Source of the DNA: Leucoraja erinacea
Lineage: Eukaryota
Assembly (NCBI RefSeq): GCF_028641065.1
Contig: NC_073382.1
Location: 37,138,001-37,202,000 of the forward strand
Reading direction: 5' to 3'
DNA length: 64,000 nt
How positions within the stretch are numbered: position 1 is the stretch's first letter; each line of letters opens with the position of its first letter. The position numbers and the translations under genes are program-made. Below, piece by piece: positions 4,423 through 57,816 of this stretch. The notes under the pieces were generated by a model. That model was not told the DNA's origin. It made no database searches and saw only the letters and a list, made by a program, of their open reading frames with translations.

Positions 4423-6192
4423 ACCATATAACCATATAACAATTACAGCACGGAAACAGGCCATCTCGACACTTCTAGTCCGTGCCGAACACGTATTCTC
4501 CCCTAGTCCCATATACCTGCGCTCAGACCACCCTCCATTCCTTTCCCGTCCATATAACTATCCAATTTATTTTTAAATGATAAAAACGAACCTGCCTCCA
4601 CCACCTTCACTGGAAGCTCATTCCACACAGCCACCACTCTCTGAGTAAAGAAGTTCCCCCTCATGTTACCCTTAAACTTATGTCCCTTAATTCCCAAGTC
4701 ATGTCCCCTTGTTTGAATCTTCCCTACTATCAGTGGGAAAAGCTTATCCACGTCAACTCTGTCTATCCCTCTCATCATTTTAAAGACCTCTATCAAGTCC
4801 CCCCCTTAACCTTCTGCGCTACAAAGAATAAAGCCCTAACTTGTTCAACCTTTCTCTGTGACTTAGTTGCTGAAACCCAGGCAACATTCTAGTAAATCTC
4901 CTCTGTACTCTCTCTATTTTGTTGACATCCTTCCTATCATTAGGCGACCAAAATTGTACACCATACTCCAGAATTGGACTCTCACCAATGCCCTGTACAA
5001 TTTTAACATTACATCCCATCTTCTATACTCAATGCTCTGATTTATAAAGGCCAGCACACCAAAAGCTTTCTTTACCACTCTATCTACATGAGATTCCAAT
5101 TTCAGGGAACTGTGCACAATTATTCCCAGATCACTCTGTGCACCTGCATTCTTCAATTCCCTACCATTTACCCTGTACGTCCTATTTTGATTTGTCCTGC
5201 CAAGATGTAGCACCTCACACTTATCAGCATTAAACTCCATCTGCCATCTTTCAGCCCACTCTTCCAACTAGCATAAATCTCTCTGTAGACTTTGAAAATC
5301 TACTTCATTATCCACAACCCCACCTATCTTAGTATCATCTGCATACTTACTATTCCAATTTACCACACCATCATCCAGATCATTGATGTACATCACAAAC
5401 AACAGTGGACCCAATACAGATCCCTGTGGCACCCCACTAGTCACTGGCCTCCAACCTGACAAACAACCATCCACCATTACTCTCTGGCATCCCCATTCAG
5501 CCACTGTTGAATCCATCTTGCTACTCCACCATTAATACCCAACAATTGAACCTTCTTAACCAACCTTCCATGAGGAACCTTGTCAAAGGCTTTACTGAAG
5601 TCCATATATACAACATCCACTGCTTTACCCTCATCAATTTCCCGAGTAACCTCTTCAAAAAATTCAAGAAGATTAGTCAAACATGACCTTCCAGGCACAA
5701 ATCCATGTTCACTGTTCCTAATCAGACCCTGTTTATCCAGATGCTTATATATATTATCTCTAAGTATCCTTTCCATTAATTTTCCCACCACTGACGTCAA
5801 ACTAACAGGTCTATAATTACTAGGTTTACTCTTAGACCCCTTTTTAAACAATGGAACAACATGCGTAGTATGCCAATCCTCTGGCACTATTCCCGTTTCT
5901 AATGACATTTGAAATATTTCTGTCATAGCCCCTGCTATTTCTACACTAACTTCCCTCAATGTCCTAGGTAATATCCTGTCCGGACATGGAGACTTATCCA
6001 CTTTTTTATTTCTCAAAAGTGTCAGTATTTCCTCTTCTTTGAATCTCATAGTTTCCATAGCTTCTCTACTTGTTTCCCTTACCTCACATAATTCAATATC
6101 CTTCTCCTTGGTGAATACCGAAGAAAATAAATTATTCAATATCTCCCCCATCTCTTTTGGCTCTGCAGATAGCTGTCCACTCTGACTCTCTA
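4423..6192 (-). mobile_element. CR1 LINE ORF2 (RT) fragment, frameshifted, with 3' UTR
   Basis: ORFs 5477-6223, 5268-5516, 4914-5267 and 4503-4796 contain NYRPVSLTS, DFSKAFDKVPH, GVPQGSVLGP and YADDTK; (ACCATATA)n tail. Confidence 0.96.
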
Positions 6193-6352
6193 GGCTACGT
6201 TTTGGGTAGCGACCCTTCTTCAAACTGAAGAAGGGTCTCGACCCAAAATGTCACCTATTCCTTCTCTCCAGAGATGCTGCCTCCCCGCTGAGTTTCTCCA
6301 GCATTTTTTCTCTATCTTCGATTGTTCCCTCATCTGCAGTTCTTTCTTAAAC
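6193..6352. mobile_element. Penelope-derived partly palindromic short element with hammerhead-like motif
   Basis: GACCCTTCTTCAAACTGAAGAAGGGTCTCGACCCAAAATGTC head-to-head arrangement; same family as 26984-27185 and 47037-47224. Confidence 0.75.
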
Positions 6353-6880
6353 AATTACAATAATACATTATTACCCAAGTATATTTTGCAACGTACGAGG
6401 AATGTAATTTGCCAGGTCAGTTATACAAATAAAAAGAAACAGAAGACATGAAACGCATTTTAACATAAACATAAACATCCATCACATTCCTCACTGATGG
6501 AAGGCGAAAAAAAGTTCAATCTCTTCCCTTGTTTGCTCTACCGTGGTCGGGGGCCTCGAGCCCTCCATTGACGGGACAATATTGACTACCATAGCCAGTG
6601 GCATTTGGGCTCTCCTCATCTGGGCGATCAGCTCCTGCATCAGGGGAATTGCAGCTCCCCCACGCCGGCGATTGAACCTCGCATCGGGGCTGGCTGAGCC
6701 TCTGCGTTCGTTGGAGCTCCTGACTGGCCTCTCCCGAAACTGTGTGCTCTTGATAGTAAGTCCACAGTGGGCAATCAAGGTCAGTCCGAGGAGGCCTTCA
6801 GCTCCGTCGATGGTAGGCTGCAGAGTGACCGGAGATACAATCCGGAAGGTAATCGCATCTCTGGCAAGGTAAGAAACTGA
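6353..6880 (-). mobile_element. Non-autonomous GC-rich retroposon with Rex-type 3' tail (family unassigned)
   Basis: Minus-strand 3' end GGCAAATTACATTCCTCGTACGTTGCAAAATATACTTGGGTAATAA with a GC-rich body; family assignment is inference. Confidence 0.5.
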
Positions 6881-14515: not shown

Positions 14516-15597
14516 TGTGGATTCGCCTCATACACTGACCAACATTCCTCTCTCAATGAAATAATTCAAAATATATTTTATAGTCATTTATTTTGTATGC
14601 TGTTTATGGAACCTCAATATGTGTAACTGGGTTGTTGCATCTGTTGACAAAACATAATAATTAAACCTTCATTTTTGATTCTTAAATATTTTGGGAAATT
14701 CTAAGGTTATATACTGGCCTGGAATTTTTTGGCTAGTGGTGAAGCAGACTGTGAACTTTGTATTACCTCTACCAAAACACGAACTTCACCATTACTGGAT
14801 CTCAGTTGCCGTCAGGCATCAGTGCCAAGAGGAACCCTGGCATCCAGCAATTACAGTGTCCTCAGACTGCCTGAGTAACCAATCAGATTCCAAAATTCCC
14901 ACAGACAAGGAAAAAAATGTACAATTTTAGCCGACTCATAAAATGGTTTCTGGAAGGCTACACAAATGTTAGAGCAAGAACATAAAATTAAAGTGGAAGC
15001 TAAAACGGATAAAATATAGACAACACCGTTCTTTATTACTTTTATTATTTTACAACCCAATAGGGAGAGATTCATCCACAGTTGTGTGAACTAAATGGAA
15101 AATGTAGTTAAATATTTTCATTGAACTCCATTTAGAAATAAAATTAACCCAATTTCTCAAGCATAGTTCAACCTGTACACATTATAACATTCTGCAGAGA
15201 ATTAATTTATATCCTATTATGTTATGAAATATTTATGTGAAGGAATTACATTCCAGGTCGTTGGAATTAAAGGGACAAAATTAGAATGTACTAGAACATT
15301 AGTATTGGACTCACCAACGCAATCTTTTTCATCTCTCAACCTGCATCTCTTGCATCTGGTGCAGCACATACAAAGTTATTGCTCCCACCTTGTCATGTTG
15401 ACAGAAGCAACGGTTATATCAAAGAGTATTGTTTATTAACTTTTCTACACAGGATATGGTTTTGTGCGTGGCTTAAGTTTGGATTCAGGAGTTATGAAAT
15501 AATAAAGATCTAGCAGGCATTAACTCAAACATGAACTCATCTTTAGGTAAAACGTATTCTAATGTAAATAGTGAGCAGTAAACGGTTTGAAAATAAA

Positions 15598-15753
15598 AGG
15601 ATGACACAAAATGCTGGAGTAATTCAGCAGGACAGGCAGCATCTCTGAAGAGAAGGAATGGGCGGCATTTCTGGTTGAGACCCTTGTTCAGATCCTTCTG
15701 AAGAAGCATATCAAGCATTTTGTGTAAACCAGCATCTGCAGTTCCTCCCTACA
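15598..15753. mobile_element. Penelope-derived palindromic short element (internally deleted)
   Basis: GACACAAAATGCTGGAGTAATTCAGC...GACCCTTGTTCAGA..CTGAAGAAG..CAGCATCTGCAGTTCC. Confidence 0.75.
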
Positions 15754-16159
15754 CTTGAAATTAAAAGGACAGCTTTGTAAACAACAAGTGCTGCCTACAG
15801 AGCACAGGCTGGTCAAGAGATGTGGTTTGTAAAGTGATATGATCTTGAAACGCACAGTCAGCATCAGCCAAATATAAAACATGGGGACTATGTTATTTGG
15901 CCAACATGAAACCAGGAATCAAACATCTTCAGTTAAATTATTTTGCACCATAGTGGCAGAGATGAAGGAAGCTTCCAGACCAGACTTATTTTGTCACCGA
16001 GCACATCAAACATCATCATAAGCACATTGCTCTGTGTGTCAATGATTGAAGTACTTCTGTACTCAGAGAGTCAGGTGTTACAACACAAATGTTGGATTCT
16101 GGGCCCCCAGAAGCTCTCAGATAGCCTATGGAATTACTTTGTCCAGCAAAGGTATGTTA

Positions 16160-17442: not shown

Positions 17443-18648
17443 AGGGCCTGTCCCACTTACGCAACTTTTCAGCAACTGTTGATCTTCAAGCTCGGGGGCA
17501 CTCGCCTGAAAAAGCGCGAGCTGCATCAACCATCAGCGATGAAACCNNNNNNNNNNNNNNNNNNNNNNNNNNNNNNNNNNNNNNNNNNNNNNNNNNNNNN
17601 NNNNNNNNNNNNNNNNNNNNNNNNNNNNNNNNNNNNNNNNNNNNNNNNNNNNNNNNNNNNNNNNNNNNNNNNNNNNNNNGGAAAGCAGGGGAGTGCTGTC
17701 TGAAATTCACATGGTGCAAAGTCAAGTTGATACCCGCGATGAACAGGAAGGTAAAATACGGCAGGCACAGTGTAGGTAAAGGGCCTGTCCCACTTGCATC
17801 CAATTGCATGCGTTTGGCGCGACCAAACAGAAGCAGAGTTCACGCGAAGTTCACGAAAAGTTCACGCTAAGCAGGCACTAAATACGCACTAAGTACGTGC
17901 TAAGTTCGCGCTAAGTTCGCGCGTGACGTAATTTGCGTCACACTTACCAATCAGCTGGGCAGGAGGCGGGCTGACTGAATTTGGGCATCGCACACGTCGG
18001 GCGGTGACGTCATCACGCAACGCCATGCCGGGCGGTGACATCATCGCGCAATGCCCGTGCTAGGCATACGCCATCAAGATGCTGTGTACGCCATCAAGAT
18101 GCTGCATACGCCATCAAGACACTGCGAATGACCGCAATGCGCAATGCATGCCGACAGGCCATTGGTGAAGGGGAGAGAACGGGGAGAGAACGGGGAGAGA
18201 ACGGGGAGAGAACGGGAAGAAGGTGTGGAGACACTTTTAAGAAGCCAGACAACTTGTTATAAATTTTAGCAGGCATTTAACATTACCGGTTGGTTTTCCT
18301 TGGTTCTGAAAACTTGTGCTTACGTTTTTTTTCCCCAATGAGCAAAGGAGATTGCCTACGGCCTACGGCCATCTCGACTACCTATAACTACATGGCAACC
18401 CCACTACCACAGCACTACGAGTTCAAAAGAACCATGACGACCAATTTTACTCATGGAAAATGTTTCAGCATGTTGAAACATTTTCCTCAACCAAACTGAG
18501 GTTGCGAGTATGCGGGAACTTATCTCGAGCATGAAAGAGAGTTACAGTGACCTCCTAGGACGACGTGTCGACAATGCTGCGAGTTTGTGACGAGCGCAAA
18601 CTCTTCTAAACTCGCAAATTAGGTCACCATAGTGGGGACTGTAAGCCT
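17443..18648. mobile_element. PIF/Harbinger MITE containing a second nested Harbinger MITE (17780-18162); includes an N-gap
   Basis: TAA|AGGGCCTGTCCCACT at 17443 and again at 17780; degenerate right TIRs GACAGGCCAT (18153-18162) and AGTGGGGAC..GCCT (~18631-18648). Confidence 0.75.
17547..17679. other. Assembly gap
   Basis: N run. Confidence 1.
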
Positions 18649-24470: not shown

Positions 24471-24530
24471 AACTATATTTAAATACAAATCAGATTATAT
24501 AAGATACATTTAATATAGTAGATAATATTT

Positions 24531-25072
24531 ACTATAAACACAGCTTTAGCATTTCCAAACCAAAGGCAACACAGCTTTAGCATTTCCAAACCAAAGGCAA
24601 CACAGGTTTAGCATTTCCAAACCAAAGGCAAAACAGCTTTCGCATTTCCAAACCAAAGGCAACACGGCTTTAGCATTTCCAAACTATATTTTCAAACTAC
24701 ATTAAGGGCACTGACAGGTCAGTAAAACCACTCACAGTTTAGTAGACATGTGTTCAATGTTATTCACAGCTCAGAATGAGAGACGTGACCCTTTCACTCC
24801 CCCATCTTGCAGAGACTGACTGAGTCACTCAACACTTCTGGGTTTTATTGTCCCTCCAGAAGGGGTGTGGTCTTCAGGAGAGAATCTCAACATTTTTTAA
24901 CACTAATAACTCTTTTATTTTTAATTGATGGGAAAAATCCTCTTGTCCTGCACAGCGGAGGGGGACTCTAAGTAAGATGGCCATAAATCACAGCCCTATG
25001 TGGTAGCATTTTTTCTAAAATCAATATAAAGCGCAAACAGGAAGTGATGATGATTAGACTTTCAATTATATA
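24531..25072 (-). mobile_element. Non-autonomous Helitron-like element, 5' portion, with a 31-bp tandem array
   Basis: Body is homologous to 29280-29651 (TGTTATTCACAGCTCAG, AAAAATCCTC, GGAGGGGG..CT); 5' end on minus strand CTATATAATTGAAAG; array AACACAGCTTTAGCATTTCCAAACCAAAGGC x~5 at 24537-24685. Confidence 0.65.
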
Positions 25073-25266
25073 GTAGGCTAGGCAACTATAATTAGGCAAG
25101 GCAAATTTAATTTGGCAAGGCAACTTTAATTAGGCAAGGCAGCTTTAATTAGGCATGGCAACTTTAATTAGTCAGGGCGACTTAAATTAGGGAAGGCAAC
25201 TTTAATTAGGCAACACAGCTTTAGCATTTCCAAACCAAAGGCAACACAGCTTTATCATTTCCAAAC
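25073..25266. repeat. 19-bp tandem array followed by 31-bp units running into a gap
   Basis: (AGGCAAGGCAACTTTAATT)~7, then AACACAGCTTTAGCATTTCCAAACC. Confidence 0.9.
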
Positions 25267-25450
25267 NNNNNNNNNNNNNNNNNNNNNNNNNNNNNNNNNN
25301 NNNNNNNNNNNNNNNNNNNNNNNNNNNNNNNNNNNNNNNNNNNNNNNNNNNNNNNNNNNNNNNNNNNNNNNNNNNNNNNNNNNNNNNNNNNNNNNNNNNN
25401 NNNNNNNNNNNNNNNNNNNNNNNNNNNNNNNNNNNNNNNNNNNNNNNNNN
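25267..25450. other. Assembly gap
   Basis: N run. Confidence 1.
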
Positions 25451-26189: not shown

Positions 26190-26983
26190 AAATGTCCAGT
26201 CAAATTATGTTGAAAGAAGATGACATTTTAATAGTTTTCTGTATCTTTGAAAGCTATTTTGGACCTGAATGTTTCTGCAGAATTTTCCATTCCTTCAGAA
26301 AGCTGTGCCGTAACAAGAAGACAGGATACAATTACACTTGTGTTTAAAAAAGACATTACTGCTATTCAGTCTGTACAAATGTGACACGTGTTGTGTGCAA
26401 AAAGGCTAAATGAATAACGGAACAATTTAGAGCAAAACAATTTAGTTGAGAAGGTTTTACTTGACACAGAGGTCTTTTTCATTACTTGAATAAGAAAGAA
26501 GAATCTTCAACTGATCTATAATATATGTCTACAGAGAAAGTGGAAAATTGCATAAATCATAGTGAAACAGAGATACAGTTTCTGTTTGACGATCTTTAAA
26601 CAGAACTAATAAAGCATAACATAAGACAGCAGATTCTGTTGAAAAGTCATTGATCTGCAGCATTACTGTCTCTCCATATTCTTGTTGCTTGACTGAGTAT
26701 TTCCAACAATTTTGTTCTTTTTAACATATTTCAGGTTTCCAACATTCACAGTATTTTGGTTTTGAATATTGTATGAAATAATTAATTCTTCAAAGAACTC
26801 AAGAGTGAATTTTTTTTAATATGCTGCTTGGTTAGTTGAAATAAGAACGGAAAATATTGGAAACACTCAGCAGATCGGATAGCATCTGTAGAAAGTGAAA
26901 CAGATTTAACGCTTCAGGGTCTTTCTACAGGACCTAAAGCATGAACTTTATTTATTTTCTTACCAGAGATACTGCTTGATCTG

Positions 26984-27185
26984 TAGAGGAAGGAACTGCA
27001 TTTGCTGCTTTAAACCAAAGATAGGCACACAATGCTGGAGTAACTTAGCGGGACAAGCAGCATCTCTGGAGAGTAGGAATGGGTGACGTTTCGGGTCGCG
27101 ACCCTTCTTCTGACTCTTCAGTCACCCATTCATTCTCTCTGGAGAAGCTGCTTGTCCTGCTGAGTTACTCCAGCATTTTGGGTCT
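26984..27185. mobile_element. Penelope-derived palindromic element inserted into an older relative, with a 15-bp TSD
   Basis: Inverted arms around the hammerhead-like core at 27085-27112; flanked by ATACTGCTTGATCTG (26969-26983) and ATGCTGCTTGATCTG (27186-27200). Confidence 0.8.
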
Positions 27186-28378
27186 ATGCTGCTTGATCTG
27201 CCGAGTGCCTCTGACATTTTCTACTTTTAATTCAGATTTCCAGCATCTGCAGTTCATTTCTTTTGTTTGTTCCCTTTTGGGTAGCTATTATGTAGAAATA
27301 GCTTGGCCAAGCTCTTGTTCAGTTAGTTGTGGGTTTAACAGTCCCACATCCCTCAGCATCAAACTTGATACTAAGCCAGCCCATGGAAACACTGAGATCT
27401 TGACAGTGTATGAGGATCATTTACCATTTCTTTTTACAGCAGGTGAAAATTGATCTTTCAAATGAGCATTTGTCTAAATGACTCTTTCCATCCTTTCGGC
27501 CATTAACTTATCTATTGTTAGCTCACATGAAAAATATTCATAAGATCAGGGACTGTTATTAAATTATGGCCAAACAATATTATTGTAAGATAATGAACAA
27601 CTGAACAAATGATATCCAACACCATTTAGTCAACACTTGCTTTAGATATTTAAAATCCTGCCTCGAATTAATATTGATGATGCCATTTTCAAAAACATTC
27701 ATTTAAAAATGTATTGAAATGTTATCTGTTTATGATTAGTATTCAAGTTATACAGGATTTAATTCAAACACCTGAAATGATTCAAAATTTTATAATAATC
27801 AATGCAAAATTGTAATTGTGCAAAAAGTGCGGATTACCTCAATTTTGCTACAGAATTAATCTAACACATTATTTACTATTTATATGAAATCTGAAGGGAC
27901 AAATAATTATGGAAATCAATGCAGAATTCATTTGTATGTAGCCTCCATGCTGAAAGATAGTAAAGATAGGAAAACTGAAGATTAAATATTTACCCTCGAG
28001 ATTGGTGGGGTTCTGCAAATAAATAACCACAGCGGTTAATTCATAATGAGAAATTTATCATATATTACATTTAACTTCTCATAATTCCTGACAACATAGA
28101 AAGAGTGCCTTCAACCCATTGAGTTTAAGTTGTCACAGTGCAATCCCATCAATCTCATTCTTCCATTTATTTCCCTGCAGTATTCACGTCCCATTAAACC
28201 TTGTCCACACCACCCCTCACCACCAACCAACCCCCACCCCCAACCTGCCAGACAATTATGAGATTTTTAGAAAAATGAGAAAAATGAAAGTTATGTTATG
28301 TTAGTTATGACCTTCAACCATAACGTTATCTTCAGTTTCCCTAATGTAATGCAATTAAAGTTCAATATTTATAATTTA

Positions 28379-29651
28379 CTAGACTAAGTGGGACCCGTTG
28401 GGTCCCAGCATCACACGGGAGGGCTGGTCACCAATGCATTATTCCACCTCTCCACCAATTCCCAACAACCAAAATTCATTTTGTGATCACAAACAATTGG
28501 GCTGCAAAAACCCGACAACCAAAATTCATTTTGTGAACACAAACTTGTCAAAAAAGGCGAGGTAAACAATTGGGCTGCAGACACCCAACAACCAAAATTC
28601 ATTTTGTGAACACAAACTTGTTAAAAAAAAGGCGAGGCAAACAATTGGGCTGCAGACACCCGGCAACCAAAATTCATTTTGTGAACACAAACTTGTTAAA
28701 TAAAAGGCGAGGCAAATAATTGGCTGCAGACACCCGACAACCAAAATTAATTTTGTGAACACAAACTTGTCAAAAAAGGCAAGGCAAACAATTGGGCTGC
28801 AGACACCTAACAACCAAAATTCATTTTGTGAAAACAAACTTGTCAAAAAAGGCGAGGCAAACAATTGGGCTGCAGACAGCCGACAACCAAAATTCATTTT
28901 GTGAACACAAACTTGTCAAAAAAGGCGAGGCAAGCAATTGGGCTGCAGTCACCCGACAACCAAAATTCATTTTGTGAACACAAACAATTGGGCTGCAGAC
29001 ACCCGACAACCAAAATTCATTTTGTGAACACAAACTTGTTTAAAAAAAGGCGAGGCAAACGATTGGGCTGCAGGACACCCGACAACCAAAATTTATTTTG
29101 TGAACACAAACTTGTTAAAAAAAAAAGGCGAGGCATACAATTGGGCTGCAGACACCCGACAACCAAAATTCATTTGTGAACTGAAACTTGTTAAAAAAAA
29201 AGGTGAGGCAAACAATTGGGCTGCATACACCCGACAACCAAAATTCATTTTGTGAACATAAACTTGTTAAAAAAGAGCTGCAGCCGCTTTACAGCCGCAT
29301 CGAGGGGACTCACCGTGGAGTAGACGTACATTTAGTGTTATTCACAGCTCAGTCTCTGCCAGACCCTCTCGCATCCTGGGTCTGGCAGAGACTGAGTGAG
29401 GCACGACACATCCTAGTTTTATAGTCCCTCCCTCTGCAGCCAGCGGGGGCTGCAGAGTGAATGGGGACTTTTGTAAAAACATTAATATATCTCTCATTTT
29501 TCATCGACGAAAAAAATCCTCTGCACTCATATGGCGGAGGGGGGCTCTGAGCGAGGTGGCCAAAAATGACGGCCGTAGGTTGCGGCGTTCTCTCGGAAAT
29601 CGCAGCACAGTCGGACAAAAACAGTCAAGATCAGAGATTTAATAATATAGA
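28379..29651 (-). mobile_element. Non-autonomous Helitron
   Basis: Minus strand A|TCTATATTATT...GGGACCCAACGGGTCCC hairpin ACTTAGT CTAG|T gives the canonical TC start, 3' hairpin, CTAG end and A/T target. Confidence 0.88.
28455..29275. repeat. ~73-bp minisatellite (~11 copies) inside the Helitron
   Basis: CAACCAAAATTCATTTTGTGAACACAAACTTGTCAAAAAAGGCGAGGCAAACAATTGGGCTGCAGACACCCGA, period 73-75. Confidence 0.95.
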
Positions 29652-30372: not shown

Positions 30373-32501
30373 TGGAAGGCATTTAAAGGCTGCATGGATG
30401 AACTACAAACATTGTTCATACCAGTTTGGCAAAAGAATAAATCAGGGAAGGTAGTACATCCATGGATAACAAGGGAAATCAGGGATAGTATCAAAGCGAA
30501 GGATGATGCGTACAAATTAGCCAGAAAAAGCAGCATACCAGAGGACTGGGAGGAAATTCAAAGACCAGCAGAGGAGGACAAAGGGCTTAATTAGGAAAGG
30601 GAAAATAGATTATGAAAGAAAACTGGCAGGGAACATAAAAACTGACTGCAAATGTTTTTATAGATATGTGAAAAGAAAGAGATTAGTTAAAACAAATGTA
30701 GGTCCCTTGCAGTCAGAAACAGGTGAGTTGATCATGGGGAACAAGGATATGGCAGACCAATTGAATAACTACTTTGGTTCCGTCTTCACTAAGGAAGACA
30801 TAAATAATTTGCCCGAAATAGCAGGGGACCGCGGGTCAAAGGAGTTGGAGGAATTGAGTGAAATCCGGGTTAGCCGGGAAGTGGTGTTGGGTAAATTGAA
30901 TGGATTAAAGGCCGATAAATCCCCAGGGCCAGATAGGCTGCATCCCAGAGTACTTAAGGAAGTAGCTCCAGAAATAGTGGATGCATTAGTAATAATCTTT
31001 CAAAACTCTTTAGATTCTGGAGTAGTTCCTGAAGATTGGCGGGTAGGAAACGTAACCCCACTTTTTAAGAAGGGAGGGAGAGAGAAAATGGGAATTACAG
31101 ACCAGTTAGTCTAACATCGGTAGTGGGGAAACTGCTAGAGTCAGTTATTAAAGATGGGATAGCAGCACATTTGGAAAGTGGTGAAATCATTGGACAAAGT
31201 CAGCATGGATTTACGAAAGGTAAATCATGTCTGACGAATCTTATAGAATTTTTCGAGGATGTAACTAGTAGCGTGGATAGGGGAGAACCAGTGGATGTGG
31301 TGTATCTGGACTTCCAGAAGGCTTTCGACAAGGTCCCACATAAGAGATTAGTATACAAACTTAAAGCACAAGGCATTTGGGGTTCAGTATTGATGTGGAT
31401 AGAGAACTGGCTGGGAAACAGGAAGCAAAGAGTAGGAGTAAACGGGTCCTTTTCACAATGGCAGGCAGTGACTAGTGGGGTACCGCAAGGCTCAGTGCTG
31501 GGACCCCAGCTATTTACAATATATATTAATGATCTGGATGAGGGAATTGAAGGCAATATCTCCAAGTTTGCAGATGATACTAAGCTGGGGGGCAGTGTTA
31601 GCTGTGAGGAGGATGCTAGGAGACTGCAAGCTGACTTGGATAGGCTGGGTGAGTGGGCAAATGTTTGGCAGATGCAGTATAATGTGGATAAATGTGAGGT
31701 TATCCATTTTGGTGGCAAAAATGGGAAAGCAGACTATTATCTAAATGGTGGCCGATTGGGAAAGGGGGAGATGCAGCGAGACCTGGGTGTCATGGTACAC
31801 CAGTCATTGAAGGTAGGCATGCAGGTGCAGCAGGCAGTAAAGAAAGCGAATGGTATGTTAGCTTTCATTGCAAAAGGATTTGAGTATAGGAGCAGGGAGG
31901 TTCTACTGCAGTTGTACAGGGTCTTGGTGAGACCACACCTGGAGTATTGCGTACAGTTTTGGTCTCCAAATCTGAGGAAGGACATTATTGCCATAGAGGG
32001 AGTGCAGAGACGGTTCACCAGACTGATTCCTGGGATGCCAGGACTGTCTTTTGAAGAAAGACTGGATAGACTTGGTTTATACTCTCTAGAATTTAGGAGA
32101 TTGAGAGGGGATCTTATAGAAACTTACAAAATTCTTAAGGGGTTGGACAGGCTAGATGCAGGAAGATTGTTCCCGATGTTAGGGAAGTCCAGGACAAGGG
32201 GTCACAGCTTAAGTATAAGGGGGAAATCCTTTAAAACCGAGATGAGAAGAACTTTTTTCACACAGAGAGTGGTGAATCTCTGGAACTCTCTGCCACAGAG
32301 GGTAGTTGAGGCCAGTTCATTGGCTATATTTAAGAGGGAGTTAGATGTGGCCCTTGTGACTAAGGGGATCAGGGGGTATGGAGAGAAGGCAGGTACGGGA
32401 TACTGAGTTGGATGATCAGCCATGATCATATTGAATGGCGGTGCAGGCTCGAAGGGCCGATTGGCCTACTCCTGCACCTACTTTCTATGTTTCTATGTTT
32501 C
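30373..32501 (+). mobile_element. Young CR1 LINE, 5'-truncated, with nearly intact ORF2 RT region
   Basis: ORFs 30394-30594, 30668-31114 and 31123-32406 are separated by two apparent 1-nt frameshifts; (TTTCTATG)n tail. Confidence 0.97.
31123..32406 (+). pseudogene. CR1 ORF2 reverse transcriptase domain to C-terminus (427 aa open, truncated copy)
   Basis: SQHGF..SCLTNL, YLDFQKAFDKVPH, GVPQGSVLGP, FADDTKLGG, RPHLEYCVQFWSP. Confidence 0.93.
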
Positions 32502-32960
32502 CAGGTTGCCAAACATTTTAACTCCAATTCCCATTCCCATACTAACATTTCTGTCCTGGGCATCCTCCACTGTCAGTGATAGGCCACAATCAAATTGGAG
32601 GAACAGCACTTCATATTTTTGCTTGTACAGCTTACAACCCAAAGGTATGAAAATTGATTTATCTAATTTCAAGTAACCCTTGCATTCCCTCTCTCTCCAT
32701 TCCTCCCCCACCCTAGGCATCCTGCTAGTTTTATTGTTCGTATCCCCTCATTATCACCTCTCCACCGGCAATATGGACCATTGTGGGCTCTTTGGCCATT
32801 GGTGCTGGCTATGATTTGTTCTGTATCTTTTCATACCTCTAGTTTACCTCTCCCCTTATTTTCAGTCTGAAGAAGGGTCTTGACCCAAAACATCACCTAT
32901 TCCTTTTCTCTAGAGATGCTGTCTGACCCGTTGTTTTACTTTAGCATTTTGTATCTTCAT
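32502..32960 (+). mobile_element. Penelope-like element 3' fragment with hammerhead-like motif
   Basis: GIY-YIG C-terminal remnant (KLEEQH.IF.L..LQPKGMKIDLSNFK); pyrimidine linker; CTGAAGAAGGGTCTTGACCCAAAACATC at 32867-32894. Confidence 0.82.
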
Positions 32961-38595: not shown

Positions 38596-41127
38596 TGGCT
38601 AGATCTCACGGTGCGACCTGATGCAAGATGTCACCCGAGTGAAGTGGTCGTGGTCCAGTAAGAGTTCCGCACGATATAGCGGGAGGTAGATAAAGAGTTC
38701 CCACGGTACTCAGCAATTCTGTCATTTTTGCGAGTGACTTGTCCGTCTCCCGATCTTTCCCGTTAATCGTGAATGAACATCGTGGACTGTAGTGTAGTTA
38801 ATCACATGGCACAAATGATGTTACTTTGTTGTCACACACTATATTGGTTTTTTTCACCCGAGCTCTTTAATGAGCTGAAGAATAATCTGTGATTTTTTAG
38901 ACAAATGTTGTTTGGTGTGATGCACCTTCTCTCAATATGTGCAAGAAGTCGTATTTTTATTTTGTCAAATATGAATAAAGACTGTGTCTCACATTGACCG
39001 TGATGATTCTGTTATTTTGTGATCTACTGAGAGGTGAAACTTTCAGTCTGAAGAAGGCTCTCGACCCGAAACGCCACCCGTTCCTTCTCTCCAGAGATGC
39101 TGCCTGTCCCGCTGATTTGCTCCAAGCAACTGGTGTCTATCTTCAAAGGACTGACCACCGGGCTGGTTGTCGGGGCTGGCGTGTTGCGTTTCACAGACCG
39201 AACTTGGGACGGGACTGGAGTTGGGAGGGAAGGGTGGGGGAGTCGAGGGAGAGGAGGGGGAGACAGATGGGGGTGTCTTCATTTAGTGGCGGTGGGTGTC
39301 TGTCACTGAAACAGGCAGGTGTGATTTCACATTCACCTTGTGTGTGCCTCTCTCTCTCTCTCTTTCTCCTTCCCTCCCTCCCTCCCTCCCTCTCACACAG
39401 GCATGAATGGATGAACTCCGCGGGCCAGGCAGCATCTACGGAGGGAAATGGACAGGCGACCCATTCTTCAGGCTGCCTTATGTCTCTCTCTCCCCCTCCC
39501 CCCAACTCCCACCCACACACACGAATGCTGGAGAAACTCAGCGGGTGCAGCGGGTGCATCTATGCCAAAACATTGTCTATTTCCTTCGGAAATAGATGCT
39601 GCTGCACCCGCTGAGTTTCTCCAGCATTTGCGTGTGTGGGTGGGAGTTGGGGGGGGGGGAGAGAGACATAAGGCAGCCTGAAGAATGGGTCGCCTGTCCA
39701 TTTCCCTCCGTAGATGCTGCCTGGCCCGCGGAGTTCATCCATTCATGCCTGTGTGAGAGGGAGGGAGGGAGGGAAGGAGGGAGAAAGAGAGAGAGAGAGA
39801 GGCACACACAAGGTGAATGTAAAATCTCACCTGCCTGTTTCAGTGAGAGACACCCACCGCCACTAAATGAAGACACCCCCATCTGTCTCCCCCTCCTCTC
39901 CCTCAACTCCCCCACCTTTCCCTCCCAACTCCAGCCCCGTCCCGACCCCCTGGGAAACTGAAGGTTTCCCGCTGTAATTAAAGAGTTCCCACGGTAGACT
40001 GTAAAACTGGGACCCTGGTTCTGGACTCCACCAACATCGGGAACATTCTTCCTCCATCTAGCCTGTCCAATCCTGTAGATACGATTAGACAGGTATCTAG
40101 TTTTTTAATTCAATTAATGATTTCTATCGCCCAGCCTCTCATCTTTCAATCGGGTTCGGCCAGGAAGGATCTGCAGATGCTGGATTAAAATGAAGATAGA
40201 CACAATATGTAGCTCAGCGGGACAAGCAGCATATCAGAAGGGTCTCGACCTGAAATGTCACCCATTCCTTCTCCCAAAAGATGCTGCCTGCCATCGAGTT
40301 ACTCATTCTCTTTAAACCGGCATCTGCTGTTCCTTCCGACACATGCACAAGAAATAGGCAACTTTTCGGGCCGAAACGTTGCCTATTTCCTTCGTTCCAT
40401 AGATGCTGCAGCACTCGCTGAGTTTCTGCAGCATTTGTGTGTGTGGGTGGCAGTTGGGGGGGGTGGGGGGTGTAGAGAGATAAGGCAGCCTGAGGAAAGG
40501 CTCGCCTGTAAATTTCCCTCCGTAGATGCTGCCTGGCCCACGGAGTTCCTCCAGTTAGAAACTGCTTTCAGACAAAAAGAGACACAAACTGCTGGAGTAC
40601 AATAGCTCAGCAAGTGAGAGTACAATAGCTCAGCAACACTCAAAAATGAAAAAGAATAAAAATGTGATTATTTCACCTCCCTTCAACTATTTTGTGTTTC
40701 AGCATGAGAGGGATTATAACATTAGAGACATTCCTCTTGTAGTGATGTGTTAATGAAGAGTTGCAGACATCAATCTGATAGTAATAAATATATTTATTTA
40801 ACCTCACCTTATGTCCCTTCTGTCAAGCTTCCGGGTTTGCCGTTTGCAGGAGTTCCCACGGTACTCGTAAGAGTCATTACGGATATCGCACGGATATCGC
40901 ACTGGCATCTGCACTCATACAATGTTGCAACGCTGCTCAAGACACTCTTGGAGAAATTCAAAAATGTTTGAATTTTCTCCCGACCTTACCAAGTCACACG
41001 ACTGCCTGCCGTCAGCGCCACGGAGGTCCTCGGTGGTCCACGAATGCCGTACTGCTATCGCAGAAGGTTCCCACGATGTTAAACTCTTGTTAGGTCTTGC
41101 TTCAGGTCGCACCGTGAGAAAGCCCTT
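38596..41127. mobile_element. Composite non-autonomous PIF/Harbinger element carrying captured repeats
   Basis: TIRs TCTCACGGTGCGACCTGA (~38604) and TCAGGTCGCACCGTGAGA (~41102); TAA on both sides; removal restores the L2 frame WMNANFLKLN. Confidence 0.82.
39206..39943. repeat. Long near-perfect inverted repeat (arms ~345 bp, spacer ~49 bp)
   Basis: 39206-39551 is the reverse complement of 39601-39943; mirror ORFs MDELRGPGSIYGGKW.. appear on both strands. Confidence 0.95.
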
Positions 41128-41745: not shown

Positions 41746-41854
41746 GATAAAATAAAATTATAACAAGTGGCTAAATGGGGGAATGTGCTTGATAAGATTA
41801 TCAAATATTCCAGAAACTTTGTGAATTTAAGGGAGTGAGTAATATACAAGGTCT

Positions 41855-41976
41855 GTAGGAAAGAACTGCAGATGCTGGTTTAAATCGAAGGTAGACACAA
41901 AATGCTGGAGTAATTCAGCGGGACAGACAGCATCTCTGGAGAGAAGGAATGGGTGACATTTTGGGTCGATATCTTT
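41855..41976 (-). mobile_element. Penelope-derived short element (single arm) with a 15-bp TSD
   Basis: Flanked by TAATATACAAGGTCT (41840-41854) and TAATATGCAAGGTCT (41977-41991). Confidence 0.8.
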
Positions 41977-45779: not shown

Positions 45780-47036
45780 TAAGCATTCTTAGAAATAAAA
45801 AAGTTAGATGTTTTTTAAACTCATTATAGGTTACATTTCATTTTATTAAAACTGAACGTTCCAAACAGCTTATCCACTGATGTAAATTGTATGTGGTTCA
45901 TTTGTGCTAAGTTTCTCCATTGTGGATGGAATCCATTTCAGTGACTGTTTCGTATCTATAATTTATTACAATAAGAGTTTGGAAAACAGAAAATAAATCA
46001 TAAGTGGGTTTGGAATTTTTCTTCGGACATCACATAACTTGAGCAGCATTCTATAAAAACATTTATCCAATCCATTTAATATTTGGTTGCAATTCAGATA
46101 AAGAATGTAATATCAGATAGCCAAAATAGCAAACAACCGATACCCTTAAATTACATTGTAGCCCAAAAAGCAATTATACAGAAGTATCCCGAATAGAATG
46201 TGTGGTTAGTGCATATCACGTGGTAAAATCTGGGTCTGGGATCTGGGTTACATGGCCAAGATTTAATCAATGGGATACTTTGAGTAAATGTGTACCACAG
46301 TATTGATTGATTAAGAGTTGATGAAAATGTAATGAAGGGAACCAGCCTGTTTCTGCGCATGTTTTGATGAGCTTCTCTGGCACTTTATTACATTCATTGA
46401 ATTATTGGTTCTTTGCAATTCTGTGTAATACAATCAATGCCGATTCTGCTGTGACAGCTAACAACCTCCATTCTATACAGAACAGATTACCTTTCTAGAT
46501 CAAAGGATTTTAATCACAATGGTCCATACTGTTTAATTGGCAAAATTAAACTGACATTTCAAAATGGTAAATGCAGATGTGAAAGACTGAAGCAAATACC
46601 AATGAATTTGTTTTCTTTTCAATTGAATAACGTTCAGCTGCATTTAACAGGAATTCCAACAGTTAAGCGCCTGTCCCACTTGGCTGTCATTCGCGCGCCA
46701 TTTACGAGACCTGCTGCGTGTGGGTAGCGTGTGGGTAGCGTGTGGGTAGCACGTGGGTAGTGCGTGGGTAGCACAGGACGGGCACATGGAGTGGTGTGGA
46801 TGGGTTTGGAGTGGCGTGGAGGGGTGTGGATTTGTCCTGAACGAATGCGCCACCGGCCTGTCGCGTAACTGACGGCTAAAGTGGGACAGGCCCAAGACCC
46901 TGGTGTGGCGCAACATCTCATCTCCAACAGCACCAATGGCAGGCAAACGACTGCCGAACTCGGCCTGGGGCTCACGTCCGTTGCGGATCCGTTTCCGCCC
47001 CCACCTACTCCCAGAGCGGTGCCAAGACGATTGGAG

Positions 47037-47224
47037 ATAGACACAAAATGCAGGAGTAACTCAGCGGGACTGGCAGCATCTCTGGAGAGAAGCAATGGGT
47101 GACGTTTCGGGGCGAGACCCTTCTTCAGACCTGAGGAGAGTCTCGACCTGAAATATCATCCATTCCTTCTCTCCAGAGATGCTGCCGGTCCCGCTGAGTT
47201 ACTCCTGTATTTTGTGTCCATCTT
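47037..47224. mobile_element. Penelope-derived palindromic element with hammerhead-like motifs on both strands
   Basis: Arms GACACAAAATG..GGGT / ..CATTCC..TTTTGTGTC; minus strand CTGAAGAAGGGTCTCGCCCCGAAACGTC (47101-47128); plus strand CTGAGGAGAGTCTCGACCTGAAATATC (47131-47157). Confidence 0.8.
47101..47128 (-). ncRNA. Candidate minimal type-I hammerhead ribozyme motif (Penelope-type)
   Basis: CUGAAGA-[A GGG UCUCGC CCC]-GAAAC-GUC, with short stem I GGU/ACC; activity untested. Confidence 0.55.
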
Positions 47225-48106
47225 TAGATTCAGATTCAGATTCAGATTCAACTTTAATTGTACAGTACAGAGACAATGAAATGCAGTTAGCATTTCTCTG
47301 GAAGAGCGACATAGAATATGAGCAATAAATACATCTATTTACATGCATACAGTCATAGTATTTTCCTTTTGGGAGGAGTGTCCGGGGGGGGGGGGGGGGG
47401 GGGGGGTGATTGGCAATCACCGAGGTACATTGTTGAGTAGTGTGACAGCTGCAGGGAAGAAGCTGTTCCTGGACCTGCTGGTCCGGCAACGGAGAGACCT
47501 GTAGCGCCTCCCGGATGGTAGGAGGGTAAACAGTCTATGGTTGGGGTGAGAGCAGTCCTTGGCGATGCTGAGCGCCCTTCGCAGACAACGCTTGCTTTGG
47601 ACAGACTCAATGGAGCGGAGTGAGGAACCGGTGATGCATTGGGCAATTTTTACCACCCTCTGCAGTGCTTTCCGGCCGGAGACAGAGCAGTTACCATACC
47701 ATACTGTGATACAGTTGGTAAGGATGCTTTCAATGATGCAGCGGTAGAAGTTCAACAGAATCTGGGGAGACAGATGGACCTTCTTCAGTCTCCTCAGGAA
47801 GAAGAGACGCTGGTGAGCCTTCTTGACCAGAGTTGAGGTATTGTGGGTCCAAGGGAGGTCATCGGAGATGTTGACCCCCAGGAACCTGAAGCTGGAAACA
47901 CATTCCACCTCCATCCCGTTAATGTGGATGGGGGTGTGCGTGCCGCCCTTCGACTTCCTGAAGTCTACAATGAGCTCCTTGGTCTTCCTGGAGTTAAGGG
48001 CCAGGTTGTTGTCAGCGCACCATGCTGCTAGGAGCTGGACCTCCTCCCTATAGGCCAACTCATCGTTGTTGCTGATGAGGCCAATCACCATTGTATCATC
48101 TGCATA
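47225..48106 (-). mobile_element. Young Rex1/Babar LINE 3' fragment
   Basis: Uninterrupted ORF 47417-48091 preceded by KYADDT: VIGLISNNDE..WC.DNNLALN..KTKELIVDFRK..LPSGRRYRS; (TCTGAA)n tail. Confidence 0.93.
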
Positions 48107-48664
48107 CTTGAGACATCACTCGCTCCAGACGGCTTTGCAGATGCATGATGACGCGCGCGACCGTTGCGCGACTGTTGCGCGTCAGTCACTACAGGCCTGT
48201 TGCGTAAATGATGGCCCAAGTGGGACAGGCCCTTTAGCAAGTTGGTGACATTGCAGTAATGATTGTCGAGATTTTCTTTGTTCGATATTATGTGTGAAAC
48301 AGTGAACAAGATGGTTGAATTTTGCTCAGTGAAATTTACAGTGTTGTTCTTTTAAAAACAGCATTGCATTCACTAGCACCAATTACAGCTGAATGTTCCT
48401 GTTAATTCCTGTAAATGCAGTAGTTAGGATCCCAAACAACCCTTCATTATTCCAAAGGTATATGGAAAAATGTATTGTAATACCTTGCCATCATGGGCAT
48501 ACCAGCTGTTGTTTCTGATGAGATTAAAAAAAACAGAAACTAATTGATGAAGCTAATCCTTTCTGCAAAGTTCTTGTGATTCAAAAGCAAACTGTGCTTG
48601 TTTTGTTTTGACAACCTGAAACATACAAGTAGACACTTACAAGTCATTCACACAATGGCCATTT

Positions 48665-48792
48665 GTGTAAGAAGGAACTGCAGATGCTGGTTTACACCGA
48701 AGATAGACTCAAAATGTTGGAGCAACTCAGCGGGGATAGCAGCATTCTATCCCGCGATGTTCACTGTCCCACTGAATTACTCCAGCATTTTA
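48665..48792. mobile_element. Penelope-derived palindromic element, centre deleted
   Basis: GTAAGAAGGAACTGCAGATGCTGG...TGTCCCACTGAATTACTCCAGCATTTT. Confidence 0.7.
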
Positions 48793-49270
48793 TAGACAGT
48801 AGACAATAGACACAGGAGTAGGCCATTCGACCCATCGAGACTGCACTGCCATTCACTGTGATCATGGCTGATCATCCACAATCAGTACACCGTTCCTGCC
48901 TTCTCCCCATATCCCTTGATTCCGCTATCTTTAAGAGCTCTATCTAACTCTCTCTTGAAACCATCCAGACTATTGGCCTCCTCTGACTTGTGATACAGAG
49001 AATTCCACAGATTCGCAATTCTCTGTGTGAAAAAGTTTTTCCGCATCTCCGTTCTAAATGGCCTACCCCTTATTCTTAAACTGTGGCCCCTGGTTCTGGA
49101 ATCCCCCAACATCGGGAACACATTTACTGCCCCTGGCCTGTCCAATCCCATAACAATCTTATATGTTTCAATAAGATACCCTCTCATCCTTCTAAATTCC
49201 AATGTAGACAAGCCCGGTCGCTCCATTCTTTCAACATATGACAGTCCAGCCATCCCGGGAATTAACCTTG
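48793..49270 (-). mobile_element. CR1 LINE 3' fragment
   Basis: ORF 48882-49280 RLIPGMAGLSY..GYGEKAGT. Confidence 0.94.
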
Positions 49271-49934: not shown

Positions 49935-50640
49935 CCATCCAGGGAACTCAGCCATCATCCCAGAAGAGACAGAGGTTTACGTGCACCTGCTCTAACCTCA
50001 CCTACGGCATCCAGTGTTCCCGATGTGGCTTCCAGTACATCGGCGAGCCCAAGCATAACTTCGGGAATTATTTTGCCTAACACTTGCATTCAGTCGGCCA
50101 AAGCCTACTACATATCCAAATTGTTAACCATTTTAACTTCTCTTCCCATTTCCATACTGACCTTTCTGTCTTGGGTCTCCTCCATTGCCAAAGTGAGGCC
50201 ACATGCAAACTGGAGAAAGAGCATCTCATATTTCGCTTGGTAAGCTTTAAACCCAATGGTATGAGTATTGAATTATCCAATTTTAGGTAAATTCTAACTA
50301 ACCGCTCCTAACTCTCACCCCTACCTTTCTCCCTCACTCCCTCCTTCCCTCCCCTGTGCCCAACCTGGAATCCCACCCATTTTTTCTCCTATCTCCCTCC
50401 TCCTATATTCCTTCCTCTGGCTTCACAATTCTGCTTTAATCTCTGACTTTGTTCCAACCATCAACCAGTCAAAAACCCTGCTTGCCTGAGACCACCCATT
50501 ATCTGCTATGCTTTGTCCTACCTCTCCCACCTTTCTTCCCCCTCCCTTCTATCAGTCTGAAGAAGGGTCCCAACCCAAAACCTGTTCTCCAGAGGTGCTC
50601 TCTGACCCAATGAGTTACTCCTGCATTTTGTGTCATTTTA
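49935..50640 (+). mobile_element. Penelope-like element 3' fragment (GIY-YIG plus hammerhead-like motif)
   Basis: QRFTCTCSNLTYGIQCSRCGFQYIGE.., HFNF..KLEKEHLIFRL..PNGMSIELSNFR; CTGAAGAAGGGTCCCAACCCAAAAC at 50557. Confidence 0.87.
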
Positions 50641-54225: not shown

Positions 54226-57200
54226 TCTATCTATACATAACTATAGCTCTGATCTTGCTATCTTTCGGTTTGCGCAGTAATTCTAAATGCGCAAAAACAC
54301 TACGCAATAGTACTATGATTTTTTGCCAGCTTGCTCACCGTTCTCCTTTGTTCCGTTCGGTGGTTTAATGTAAAAGGTAACGAGATTTAAAAACCTTAAA
54401 AACCGCGCGTGCCCAGATTGATCTGCTCTACTGCAAGTCAGCACTGCATGGATCGGTCTTTTGTCCTGTCACTCCGTGGGACGGTCCGCCCCTTCCTGCA
54501 CCATCGCGTCTTCACTAACCCAGGCCAGGAGATGTCAGCAAATGGAAAGCGGATAATCTGATATCGGTGGAGGAAAACGTCCAGCAAACAGCGCCCGTTG
54601 TGAGTTCGCATCGCACCATCAACTCCAGCCTCTCCCCTCGGTCCCCCTCACTGGCTCTTTGCCCCCCCTCCCCCCATGATACCCCCCTCTCCCCCACACC
54701 CCCTTTCTTTCCTCCGCCATCCCTTGCAACAGGGCACACCCCCGCCGGCCCGCCTGAAGCCATCCCCCCTCCCCAGGACACAAATGCTCCCAACAGTCCC
54801 CGCCTGATGCCATCCTCAGCTGCAGGTTGCTTCCCCACTACATGCCCCCCCTCAAGCCCCATCCCCCTGCAGAATGCGCCCCACCATCCCCCTTGAAGCC
54901 CCCACAATGGCAGTCCAAGCTACGGCAGCAAACACACGACCATGGCAGCGTTAGGCCACATAGTGATAGACCCGCCCAACACACCCTCTCCCCATGACAG
55001 CGATAGGCCGTGGCAACCTCCCTAGGCAGCCCCCCTCGCCCCAACCCACCCCTGGCAGGGGTAGGCACACCCTTCCACACACCAGCAGCGGTAGGCCCAC
55101 TTCCTCCCTCCACCCACACCCCCCCCCCCACCCCCACCCCCTCCACAAACCCCCTCCTCCCAGACACCCCTGCCTGAAGCCACACCCCTCCCATTTCTAC
55201 AGGATACTCTCCTGAAGCTGTCCACATTCCACAGCCCATCATGCTCCTCTGGCCCCCGTCAGCCATCCCCTCCCCTGCCTAAACATCCCTCACCTCCTCC
55301 CAGCGACCCCGCCTGAAGCCGTCCCCCTCCCCTGGCTACAGAACGCCCCCCCCGCCCCCGCCCCCCGCTGGCCCCCTGCTGGCCCCCACCGGCCCCCTAC
55401 CTGAAGCCGTCCCTGGCAACAGGACACACCCGCCGGCCCCCGCCTGAAGCCAGAACCCCCCCCCCCCCGGCTACAAGATGCTCCCAACAGTCCCCGCCTG
55501 ATGCCATCCTCAGCTGCAGGTTGCTTCCCCACTACCTGCCCCCACCTCAAGCTGTCCCATCCCCAGCTGCAGAATGCTCCCCACCGATCCCCGCTTGAAG
55601 CCAGTGGAGAATGGCAGTGGCAAGCTACGGCAGCAAAAGGCCACGGCCATGGCAGCGTTAGGTCACGATAGCGATAGACCATGGCAGCGGCAGCAGTAAG
55701 CCATGACAGCGATAGGCCGTGGCAACGGCTAGGCAGCAGTAGGCAGTGGCAGCGGCTGGCCATGGCAGGGGTAGGCAGCGGTAGACCACAGCAGCGGTAG
55801 GCCTTAGCAGCGCCACCCCCCCCCCTCTACCGGCGCCAGACAGGCCCCGCCTGAAGCCGACCCCCTCCCCTGGCTACAGGATGCTCCCCACCTGAAGCTA
55901 TCCACATTCCACAGCTACAGAATGCTCCCTCTGGCCCCCATCTGGAGCCGTCCCCTTCCCCTGCTGTAGGATGCTTTCACCCCCCTCCCACCTGACCCCA
56001 CCTAAAGACATCCCCCACCGGCACCTGAAGCAGTCCCCCTTCCCCAGCTGCAGATCTCTCCCCACCGGCCCCTACCTGAATCCATCCCTGGCTACAGGAC
56101 ACTCCCCCAACGGCTCCCGCCTGAAGCCATCCCCTCCCCCGCCCTAGCTAAAGGATGCCCCCGTCGACACCCCCCGCCTGAAGCTGTCCCCAGCTGCAGT
56201 ATGCTCCTCCCCCCCACCCACCATTCCCCACCTGAACCTGTTCCGTCCCCAGCTGCAAGACACTCCCCCATCCCCACCAGCCCCCACCTGAAAGTGTCCC
56301 CGTCCCCAGCTGCAGGATGCTCCCCACCAGTCCCAGCCTGAAGCCGGTGGAGAGCGGCTGTGGTAGGCCATGGCAGGGACAGGCCACGGCCATGACAGCG
56401 GTAGGCTACGACAGCAATAGGCCACGGCAGCAGCAGTGGTAGGCAGGGCTGAGCTGCGGCGGGCCATGGCAGGGGTTGGCAGCAGTAGGCCACGGCAGCA
56501 GTAGGCCACGGCTGCAGTAGGCCACGGCAGCAGTAGGCCACGGCAGAGGCAGGCCATGGCAGCAGTAGGCCACTGCAGCAATCTTCCCCCTCCACTGGCC
56601 CCCAACAGGCCCTGCCTGAAGCTATCCCCCTCCTCTGGCTGCAGGATGCTCCCCGCCTGAAGCGGTCCCCATCCCAGATACAGAACACTCACTCTGGCCT
56701 CCGCCTGAAGCCATCCCCATCCCCAACCGTAGGCAGCGGAAGGCAGCGGAAGGCAGCGGAAGCAGTAGGCCACGACAGCAATAGGCCACGGGTGCCCCAG
56801 CCTGAAACCGCCCCCCTCCCCCGGCTGCAGGACGCTCCCCCCCCACCGGCTCCCGCCTGAGCAGCCTACCATTGTAGGACGCTCCCCCGGCCCCCGCACA
56901 GTCCGCACCTGAAGCCATCCCCTACCCCACTGTGAGAATCTGCCCCCCCCGGCCCCCGACAACCCCCTCCTGAAGCTGTCCCCAACGCCCCGCTTCAGAA
57001 CGCTGTCCCCCTCACTGGCCCCCGCCTGAAGCCGTACCTTCCGCAGCTGCAGGACGTACCCCCCCCCCACAGCCCTCGCCTGAAGCCATCCCCCTTCCCC
57101 AGCTGTAGGATGCTCCCTCTAGCCCCAGCCAGCCTCTTCTTGAAGCTGTCCTCCTCCCCTGGTGCAGGATGCTCCCCACTGGCCCCCACCTGAAGGTGTG

Positions 57201-57816
57201 GACAGCTTCAGGCGGGACCCTTGTGGGGGGGGGATCATCCTGCAGCAGGGGACGGAATGGCTTCAGGCAGGGGTTGGTGGGGGGGGGTGGTTGCCCGCAG
57301 TAGGCCACGCAGCACTCCCTCCCTCTCCCCACTGGCCCCCGACAGGCCGCGCCTGAAGCTGTCCCCCTCACCCGGCTGCAGGACATTCCTCCCTACCCCA
57401 CTGGCCCCCGACAGACCCGGCCTGAGGATGTGTCCCTTCCCTGGCTTCAGACCCTTCCCCCCACCAGCCCTCGACAGCCACGCCTGAAGCCATCCTCCTT
57501 ATCCAGCTGCAGAACACAACAAGAGGCGAAACAAGAAAGAATGGACTGAATAAATCTCATCTTTAACATTTAAATTATTGTTATATTTTAAGAGTCATTC
57601 ATATTTTAAACTTTAATAAATCCCTTTTCCACTTGCCGTGCCCATCAGCTAATCCTGCGCAGTAATGCTTGTGTGTTTTACATCACAATGCAAACCCAAT
57701 GAGCGGGAAGGCTGCACCTCTGGAGAGCCGCTAAGAGTGGATGGGGGGGTTGCAGGGGGATGGAGTGAATGCGTGGGGGGGGGGGGGGGGGACCCAACAG
57801 GTCCCACTTAGTCTAG
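54226..57816 (+). mobile_element. Non-autonomous Helitron carrying ~3 kb of GC-rich degenerate minisatellite
   Basis: A|TCTATCTATAC start; end GGGACCCAACAGGTCCC ACTTAGT CTAG|T, the same 3' terminus as 28379-28410. Confidence 0.87.
54700..57515. repeat. Degenerate two-motif GC-rich tandem array
   Basis: Recurrent CCCCGCCTGAAGCC(A/G)TCCCC..GCTGCAGGATGCTCCCC units interspersed with GGCAGCAGTAGGCCAC units. Confidence 0.9.

Follow-up and report, generated by a model that had tools for sequence, protein, structure and literature searches.

The short repeats to which the palindrome at 47037-47224 belongs are, with good confidence, end-pieces of the terminal repeats (pLTR) of a Neptune-type Penelope element, bearing a minimal hammerhead and likely written singly by the element's own reverse transcriptase (RT), the 47037 copy itself being contained in a Harbinger-type MITE and likely multiplied by it as DNA. 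It is improbable that the flagged palindrome is a ribozyme element spreading by itself. The window was the whole stretch of 64,000 nucleotides, and positions given without a locus name refer to it.

Parent element and abundance of its end-pieces

As judged from the sequence, the arm represents the end of the pLTR of a Neptune-type Penelope element that was active recently. Its Penelope origin, proposed in the initial annotation, was borne out by the position of the arm, which is found 3′ of the GIY-YIG ORF and also, where elements are full, ahead of the ORF start. The arm was found 3′ of GIY-YIG in 17 of 20 loci, which had been picked for long GIY-YIG frames. Full elements were found to contain an inverted pLTR followed by a pLTR, the ORF and a further pLTR, with an arm identity of 98-99%. 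The same order was present at locus L137 at about 99% identity, where the likely start codon lies ~165 nt downstream of the hammerhead core. The young subfamily contained open frames of up to 903 aa, in which RT motifs were read, followed by the presence of a CX4CxxC linker and, at the C-terminus, of GIY-YIG with CCHH. The Pfam GIY-YIG match of the parent-element ORF (E=0.0026) was below the cut-off. The RT, linker and GIY-YIG motifs point to a Neptune-type element, a linker of the form CX2-5CxxC being present in the parent element and in Nematis too.

In the assembly searched (2.19 Gb, 1,769 contigs), 40,789 exact hammerhead cores were found, with 0 for the control. Sixty 10-kb stretches (600 kb), taken at round positions on contigs C1-C16, were found to contain 239 arms, which make up about 3.8% of the sampled DNA and extrapolate to a genome-wide total of ~870,000. 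A same-strand neighbour was present for 18 of the 239 arms. This very large and partly young set of Penelope insertions, with ends readable at base resolution, opens Penelope priming, fold-back formation and the role of the hammerhead to testing by sequence together with one 5′ RACE.

Arms and other features in the window

A profile search gave 33 arm hits within the 64-kb window. The 25-mer core, with up to 3 mismatches allowed, matched at 6 places in the window and at none in 100 shuffles, and a loose hammerhead pattern had 4 against a shuffle mean of 0.19; the hammerhead family was absent among the 25 matches of an Rfam scan at E<=5. All ten places initially listed as sharing the core or its flanking arm were found to carry arms, the one at 48665 without the core. 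The arms reported at the ends of the GIY-YIG fragments were likewise recovered, 32863 and 50552 marking the 3′ ends of those fragments. The former belongs to a decayed Penelope 3′ end at 32505-32955 on the plus strand (hammerhead arm at 32863-32955), and the latter to a decayed Neptune-type Penelope 3′ end at 49970-50634 on the plus strand, which contained a GIY-YIG fragment followed by a pyrimidine-rich UTR (putative intron), the hammerhead and the arm. Fold-back pairs were found at 6191-6353 (inverted short arm and long-tailed arm), 26982-27186 (minus arm long-tailed, plus arm short), 40161-40343 (junction off-centre) and 48664-48793 (without hammerhead core), and an arm with an internally deleted partner at 15591-15754. 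Solo arms were present at 39043-39143 on the plus strand, starting at TCAGT, and at 41852-41976 on the minus strand, long-tailed and with a truncated core.

The window was also found to contain a 295-nt inverted repeat at 39206-39943, 97% complementary with 148 nt spacing, in which arms of two Penelope subfamilies are nested and which is a strong potential source of dsRNA. A GC-rich region with degenerate repeats of 16 bp and about 60 bp was present at 54700-57530, and tandem repeats with periods of about 73-75, 31 and 19 bp at 28461-29274 and 24506-25273. A LINE whose open RT frame spans 445 aa was found at 30521-32500, together with related copies and several dispersed relatives.

The palindrome at 47037 and the MITE that carries it

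The palindrome at 47037-47224 contained head-to-head Penelope pLTR end-pieces, with the pivot at ~47129-47130 and arms that are 86-88% complementary. Head-to-head palindromes had been annotated with a motif on each strand; they are real, and at 47037 the minus-strand CTGAAGA..GAAACGTC motif at 47128-47101 and the plus-strand CTGAGGA..GAAATATC motif at 47131-47157 agreed exactly with the earlier reading in position and letters. The motif at 47101-47128 on the minus strand is a minimal type I hammerhead by the descriptor in the available text of PMC4209133, with the core intact and one stem II mismatch (U-C), and its predicted cut lies between 47101 and 47100. The motif at 47131-47157 on the plus strand is degenerate, reading GAAATATC where the founder likely read GAAACATC, with the bulged A missing and an A-C mismatch present. 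The whole palindrome was predicted to form a hairpin of -139.9 kcal/mol, and this fold is predicted to bury the ribozyme. Two working ribozymes in the palindrome, as its description had implied, are not in agreement with a stem II pairing probability of 0.00 in the predicted fold. A working ribozyme on the plus strand is likewise not supported, GAAAUAUC belonging to a MITE subfamily with CGTC in 0/30 plus arms. The reading of GAAAUAUC as a compensatory change was rejected, TA being present in 2/130 at the stem III CpG and in 2/215 at the arm CpG. The formation of dsRNA from the palindrome, when transcribed, is plausible.

The palindrome was found inside a non-autonomous DNA transposon (MITE) at 46666-48233 on the plus strand, flanked by a TTA duplication (46663-46665 and 48234-48236) and bounded by a left terminal inverted repeat (TIR) at 46666-46679 (plus) and a right one at 48220-48233 (minus). 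PIF/Harbinger MITEs contain short TIRs, a TAA/TTA duplication and no ORF, and by these features the present MITE is presumably of PIF/Harbinger type. It was split by the later insertion of a LINE 3′ fragment at 47225-48112 on the minus strand, with an RT containing a YADD motif and a GAATCT-repeat tail, and would measure about 600-700 bp if uninterrupted.

The 30 best genomic matches of the 47037 copy, selected by likeness to the query, were found to have common flanks, and both TIRs were present in 27 of them. The 3-nt flanks were identical in 18 of these 27 copies (TTA/TTA at the window copy) and unequal in the other 9, of which 5 had TAA vs TTA. A junction 28-mer had 1,424 exact matches genome-wide, giving at least 1,424 copies of the MITE. 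Arm-specific variants were common to 25, 21 and 19 of the 30 copies. In the plus arm, GAAA was followed by CATC in 13/30, TATC in 11/30 and CGTC in none, and CGTC was present in the minus arm of 21/30; to judge by these letters, the plus-strand core was likely broken already in the MITE founder.

Mobilisation by Penelope RT, as first proposed, holds for most copies, which are Penelope insertion products; for the 47037 copy in its TIR-bounded MITE, spread by a DNA transposase, as DNA cargo, is most likely instead. This copy is atypical of the arms, one MITE pair being found among the 37 sampled pairs, and is a clear instance of a retroelement palindrome captured by a DNA transposon and amplified with it. 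Harbinger-type transposases are present in the genome; the TIR motif was found near 2 of 30 such loci, not above background (0.54 per 3.5 kb), and the TIR-like motif gave 92 loose hits in 600 kb. At L372:617-3311, a Harbinger-type transposase was found between inward-facing TIR-like motifs, a possible parent of the MITE. The left TIR of this Harbinger-type repeat family was also found at 17446 and 17783. Variants that retained the long tail and extra flank were present at three loci (L011, L019, L168) and likely represent the MITE capture at an earlier stage.

Conservation and decay of the hammerhead motif

The motif was found to be of the minimal hammerhead type, as suggested, with CUGANGA, GAAA and UH all present in the core, and NUH is preserved in the subfamily variant GUC to GUU. 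Stem II is pairable, with 4 bp, an unpaired base ahead of the stem and a variable loop, and the subfamily change A22G preserves a U-G pair in it. Changes within the motif were mostly one-sided with pairing kept, and no two-sided change was seen. Stem III contained a self-complementary ACGU at 15.2-16.2, with CG in 64/130 and the remainder mostly CpG decay; this decay is like that of CpG in the arm, where CG was kept in 107/215. The MITE plus arm does not form a self-complementary stem III. The earlier remark on a weak stem I proved accurate, since it contained 2 bp only against 4-5 bp in minimal PLE hammerheads; its outer pair was G-C in 89/130, its inner pair was broken in some copies, and no longer partner was found up to 150 nt upstream. 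Most copies are mutated, also as noted before, and 25 of 130 motif-spanning arms combine an intact core with a 4-bp stem II and a stem III that is self-complementary. The active shape is not favoured in the predicted folds of the motif.

A core more conserved than the flanking arm, as expected of a ribozyme, was found in part: non-CpG core columns had a mean identity of 0.93 against 0.84 in the arm (p=0.001), although 0.93 was likewise the value for those arm columns that are invariant. The gap arises from subfamily variants in the arm, and leaves scope for some selection. In a column table read by eye, such variants were present in 1/18 core and stem II columns vs 19/58 arm columns, with p=0.03 (p=0.05 for the core by itself). 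The pattern of columns fits selection on master elements with neutral decay of dispersed copies. Copy ends were not clustered at the cut site among the 239 arms, 3 of which start at model positions 33-36 and 1 of which ends at position 36 or earlier.

RNA reads

A 771-nt piece of the young element was used as the query, with reads aligned at 90% or more. In two single-cell runs of the same species label, 19,662 and 21,359 of 17.6 million reads were aligned, followed by 6,300 of 7.3 million in a run from another organism. The aligned reads were found on both strands with a peak on the arm, a few of them crossing opposite-strand joints, and fit passive transcription of many copies; they are evidence of neither cleavage nor editing. 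No pile-up of read ends was found at the cut site, but ends of this kind cannot be seen in libraries that are fragmented or single-cell.

Formation of head-to-head pairs

In the 600-kb sample, 74 of the 239 arms formed 37 head-to-head pairs with 35 different junction combinations. One long and one short arm were present in 28 of the 37 (expected 50%, p=0.0013), both arms reached the core boundary in 9, and the partner arm was within the top similarity decile in 16 of 30 pairs. The same long/short asymmetry was found in large inverted insertions, and many copies are flanked by target-site duplications. The 3′ ends of the arms cluster near model 95-106 and 129-137, two points about 35 nt apart. 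From their junctions, the pairs look to be made afresh at each insertion. In the available text of earlier work, long/short asymmetry is the Penelope 'tail' signature (10.1101/2021.04.23.441226), tails and solo pLTRs are reported (PMC3846280, 10.1101/2021.04.23.441226), and head-to-head palindromes are ascribed to self-priming (PMC3846280). For the Anolis element PAc, the accessible part of PMC11167929 describes two internal RT start sites on uncleaved RNA in vitro, which would explain the two 3′-end clusters and the tail signature, and cleavage that is dispensable and protein-assisted.

In the preferred explanation, the RT would initiate on uncleaved RNA, at either of two internal sites, for which the basis is the anole element in vitro (PMC11167929, available text), run 100-135 nt, and then join the target or prime back on itself, often through the native CAG-T-CTG mini-hairpin, giving a head-to-head pair. 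The ribozyme would likely be relevant in master elements only, as a dimer or with protein help, and dispersed copies would be decaying passengers. Against this explanation, five tandem-type arms and a three-unit core tandem at L108 resemble small retrozymes; the better conserved core columns, the unequal flanks of 9 of 27 MITE copies and the background-level rate of the TIR motif near transposase loci also count against it. The tandem (L108:5017-5195) contained three head-to-tail 42-nt hammerhead cores and is a natural candidate for cleavage as a dimer, or for a retrozyme in the making.

The initial annotation had favoured a family of non-autonomous fold-back retroposons whose palindromes are transcribed and then mobilised again by Penelope RT, hammerheads working on both strands; we now regard this as very improbable. 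Retrozymes do derive from Penelope pLTRs (10.64898/2026.07.22.740005, available text), the few RNA reads over opposite-strand joints are in line with such a family, and 950 exact symmetric pivots were found genome-wide. These pivots, however, span different subfamilies and arm lengths; the first 30 were found to contain several subfamilies, second arms that measure 10-136 nt and duplications of their own, up to 16 bp long, turning on the native CAG-T-CTG, and 3 of the 30 fall in the MITE. The sole set found with a shared junction was TIR-bounded, the predicted hairpin excludes stem II, and the ends are not gathered at the cut site. Spreading of the family as one unit is not supported, given the variety of junctions and the long/short asymmetry of the sampled pairs, and a fixed structure common to the non-MITE loci, as a SINE-like master copy would give, was not found.

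The 5′ boundary of the arms

Among 130 core-bearing copies, chosen solely for an intact core (60 young, 70 older subfamily), 77 start 0-6 nt before CUGAAGA, within TCAGT, which we take to be an initiator-like (Inr) motif. The 5′ ends of the young subfamily were found at 0-6 nt in 39 copies, at 7-40 nt in 3 and further upstream in 18, and those of the older subfamily in 38, 11 and 21, respectively. The mode is 2-3 nt in both. No account of this boundary was found in literature searches covering few subscription papers. The position of the ends suggests that the short pieces may be complete start-site-to-tail cDNAs and not random truncations.

That the pile-up marks the transcription start, TCAGT being the initiator and the 100-135-nt pieces running from start to tail, comes close to an even call. 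The excess at 0-6 nt over 7-40 nt in each subfamily argues for it, as do the common mode despite different upstream sequences, a slight G-over-A excess before AGT (2,773 vs 2,884, 0.49 vs 0.43 expected) and the Inr-like TCACT in a rotifer pLTR (PMC3846280, available text). Against it, a clean single extra G was not seen at 50 inspected junctions, and a cap-G signature was rejected, the excess being small and the junctions messy; an RNA start pile-up was not seen in libraries that cannot show one, and in D. virilis transcription starts 46 bp upstream of an intron ending at the hammerhead (PMC2377424, PMC4209133, available text). The pile-up could also be due to a CAG|T splice acceptor, or to the RT stopping at an RNA structure or bound protein, on a longer unspliced RNA, a reading that we hold to be less likely than not. 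It is favoured by a donor-like GT that overlaps the stop codon of the ORF and precedes a pyrimidine tract and CAG, a layout seen in most of the 55 ORF ends where the acceptor was found and the same as that of the D. virilis intron (PMC2377424, available text). Two predicted spliced junctions, searched without a positive control, had 0 genomic matches, Penelope copies being known to keep introns; the skip was absent among the 15 RNA joints shown of 89, and the pile-up does not shift with the branch-like A between subfamilies. A lariat stop was rejected on the same unmoved boundary.

Under the transcription-start reading, the main Penelope product would be a complete start-to-tail cDNA of 100-135 nt, with the initiator 3 nt before the core and the ribozyme at the capped 5′ end of the mRNA, a proposal that we put forward tentatively and rate somewhat short of even. 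If true, the ribozyme cut would decap the mRNA and not release a transposition template. It would also account for the solo minimal hammerheads that have been reported, in their thousands, from animal genomes and for the need of Penelope for tandem copies to move whole elements. Such a cDNA would resemble the strong-stop DNA of retroviruses, except that it is integrated directly.

Comparison with known systems

Penelope pLTR hammerheads are known, and it is their scale that is unusual here. In the available text of Cervera and De la Pena 2014 (PMC4209133), metazoan PLE hammerheads likewise contain CUGANGA, an unpaired base before stem II, G10.1-C11.1 and a palindromic 15.2-16.2, and are present in the pLTR, mostly as dispersed singles with some close opposite-strand pairs. 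The arms described here, with a stem II of 4 bp and a stem I of 2 bp (2 bp in D. virilis), may already figure among the families listed there, and their exact core count compares with about 4,000 in coelacanth and 9,000 in Xenopus, obtained by a different method. PIF/Harbinger MITEs in general differ from the present copy, which carries a captured Penelope palindrome.

Neptune-clade PLEs, as far as described in the available text of 10.1101/2021.04.23.441226 and PMC3846280, share the RT, the CX4CxxC linker and the C-terminal GIY-YIG. Their insertions are alike in partial tandems, an inverted 5′-truncated copy, a 30-40 bp tail at one end and short duplications, whereas most insertions here contain the last 100-135 nt only, with a sharp common 5′ boundary. 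The Anolis PAc Poseidon element (PMC11167929, available text) is alike in its two internal RT starts, a cleaved-RNA template not being indicated, but its ORF starts inside the hammerhead, where the likely start codon here lies past the core. Identity with retrozymes was rejected for the 47037 copy, which is head-to-head and not tandem (10.64898/2026.07.22.740005, PMC6765202, available text). The non-LTR retrozymes of 10.64898/2026.07.22.740005, as described in its available text, are alike in being pLTR-related and non-coding with a type I hammerhead, but they form head-to-tail tandem arrays, whereas the arms found here are solo or head-to-head.
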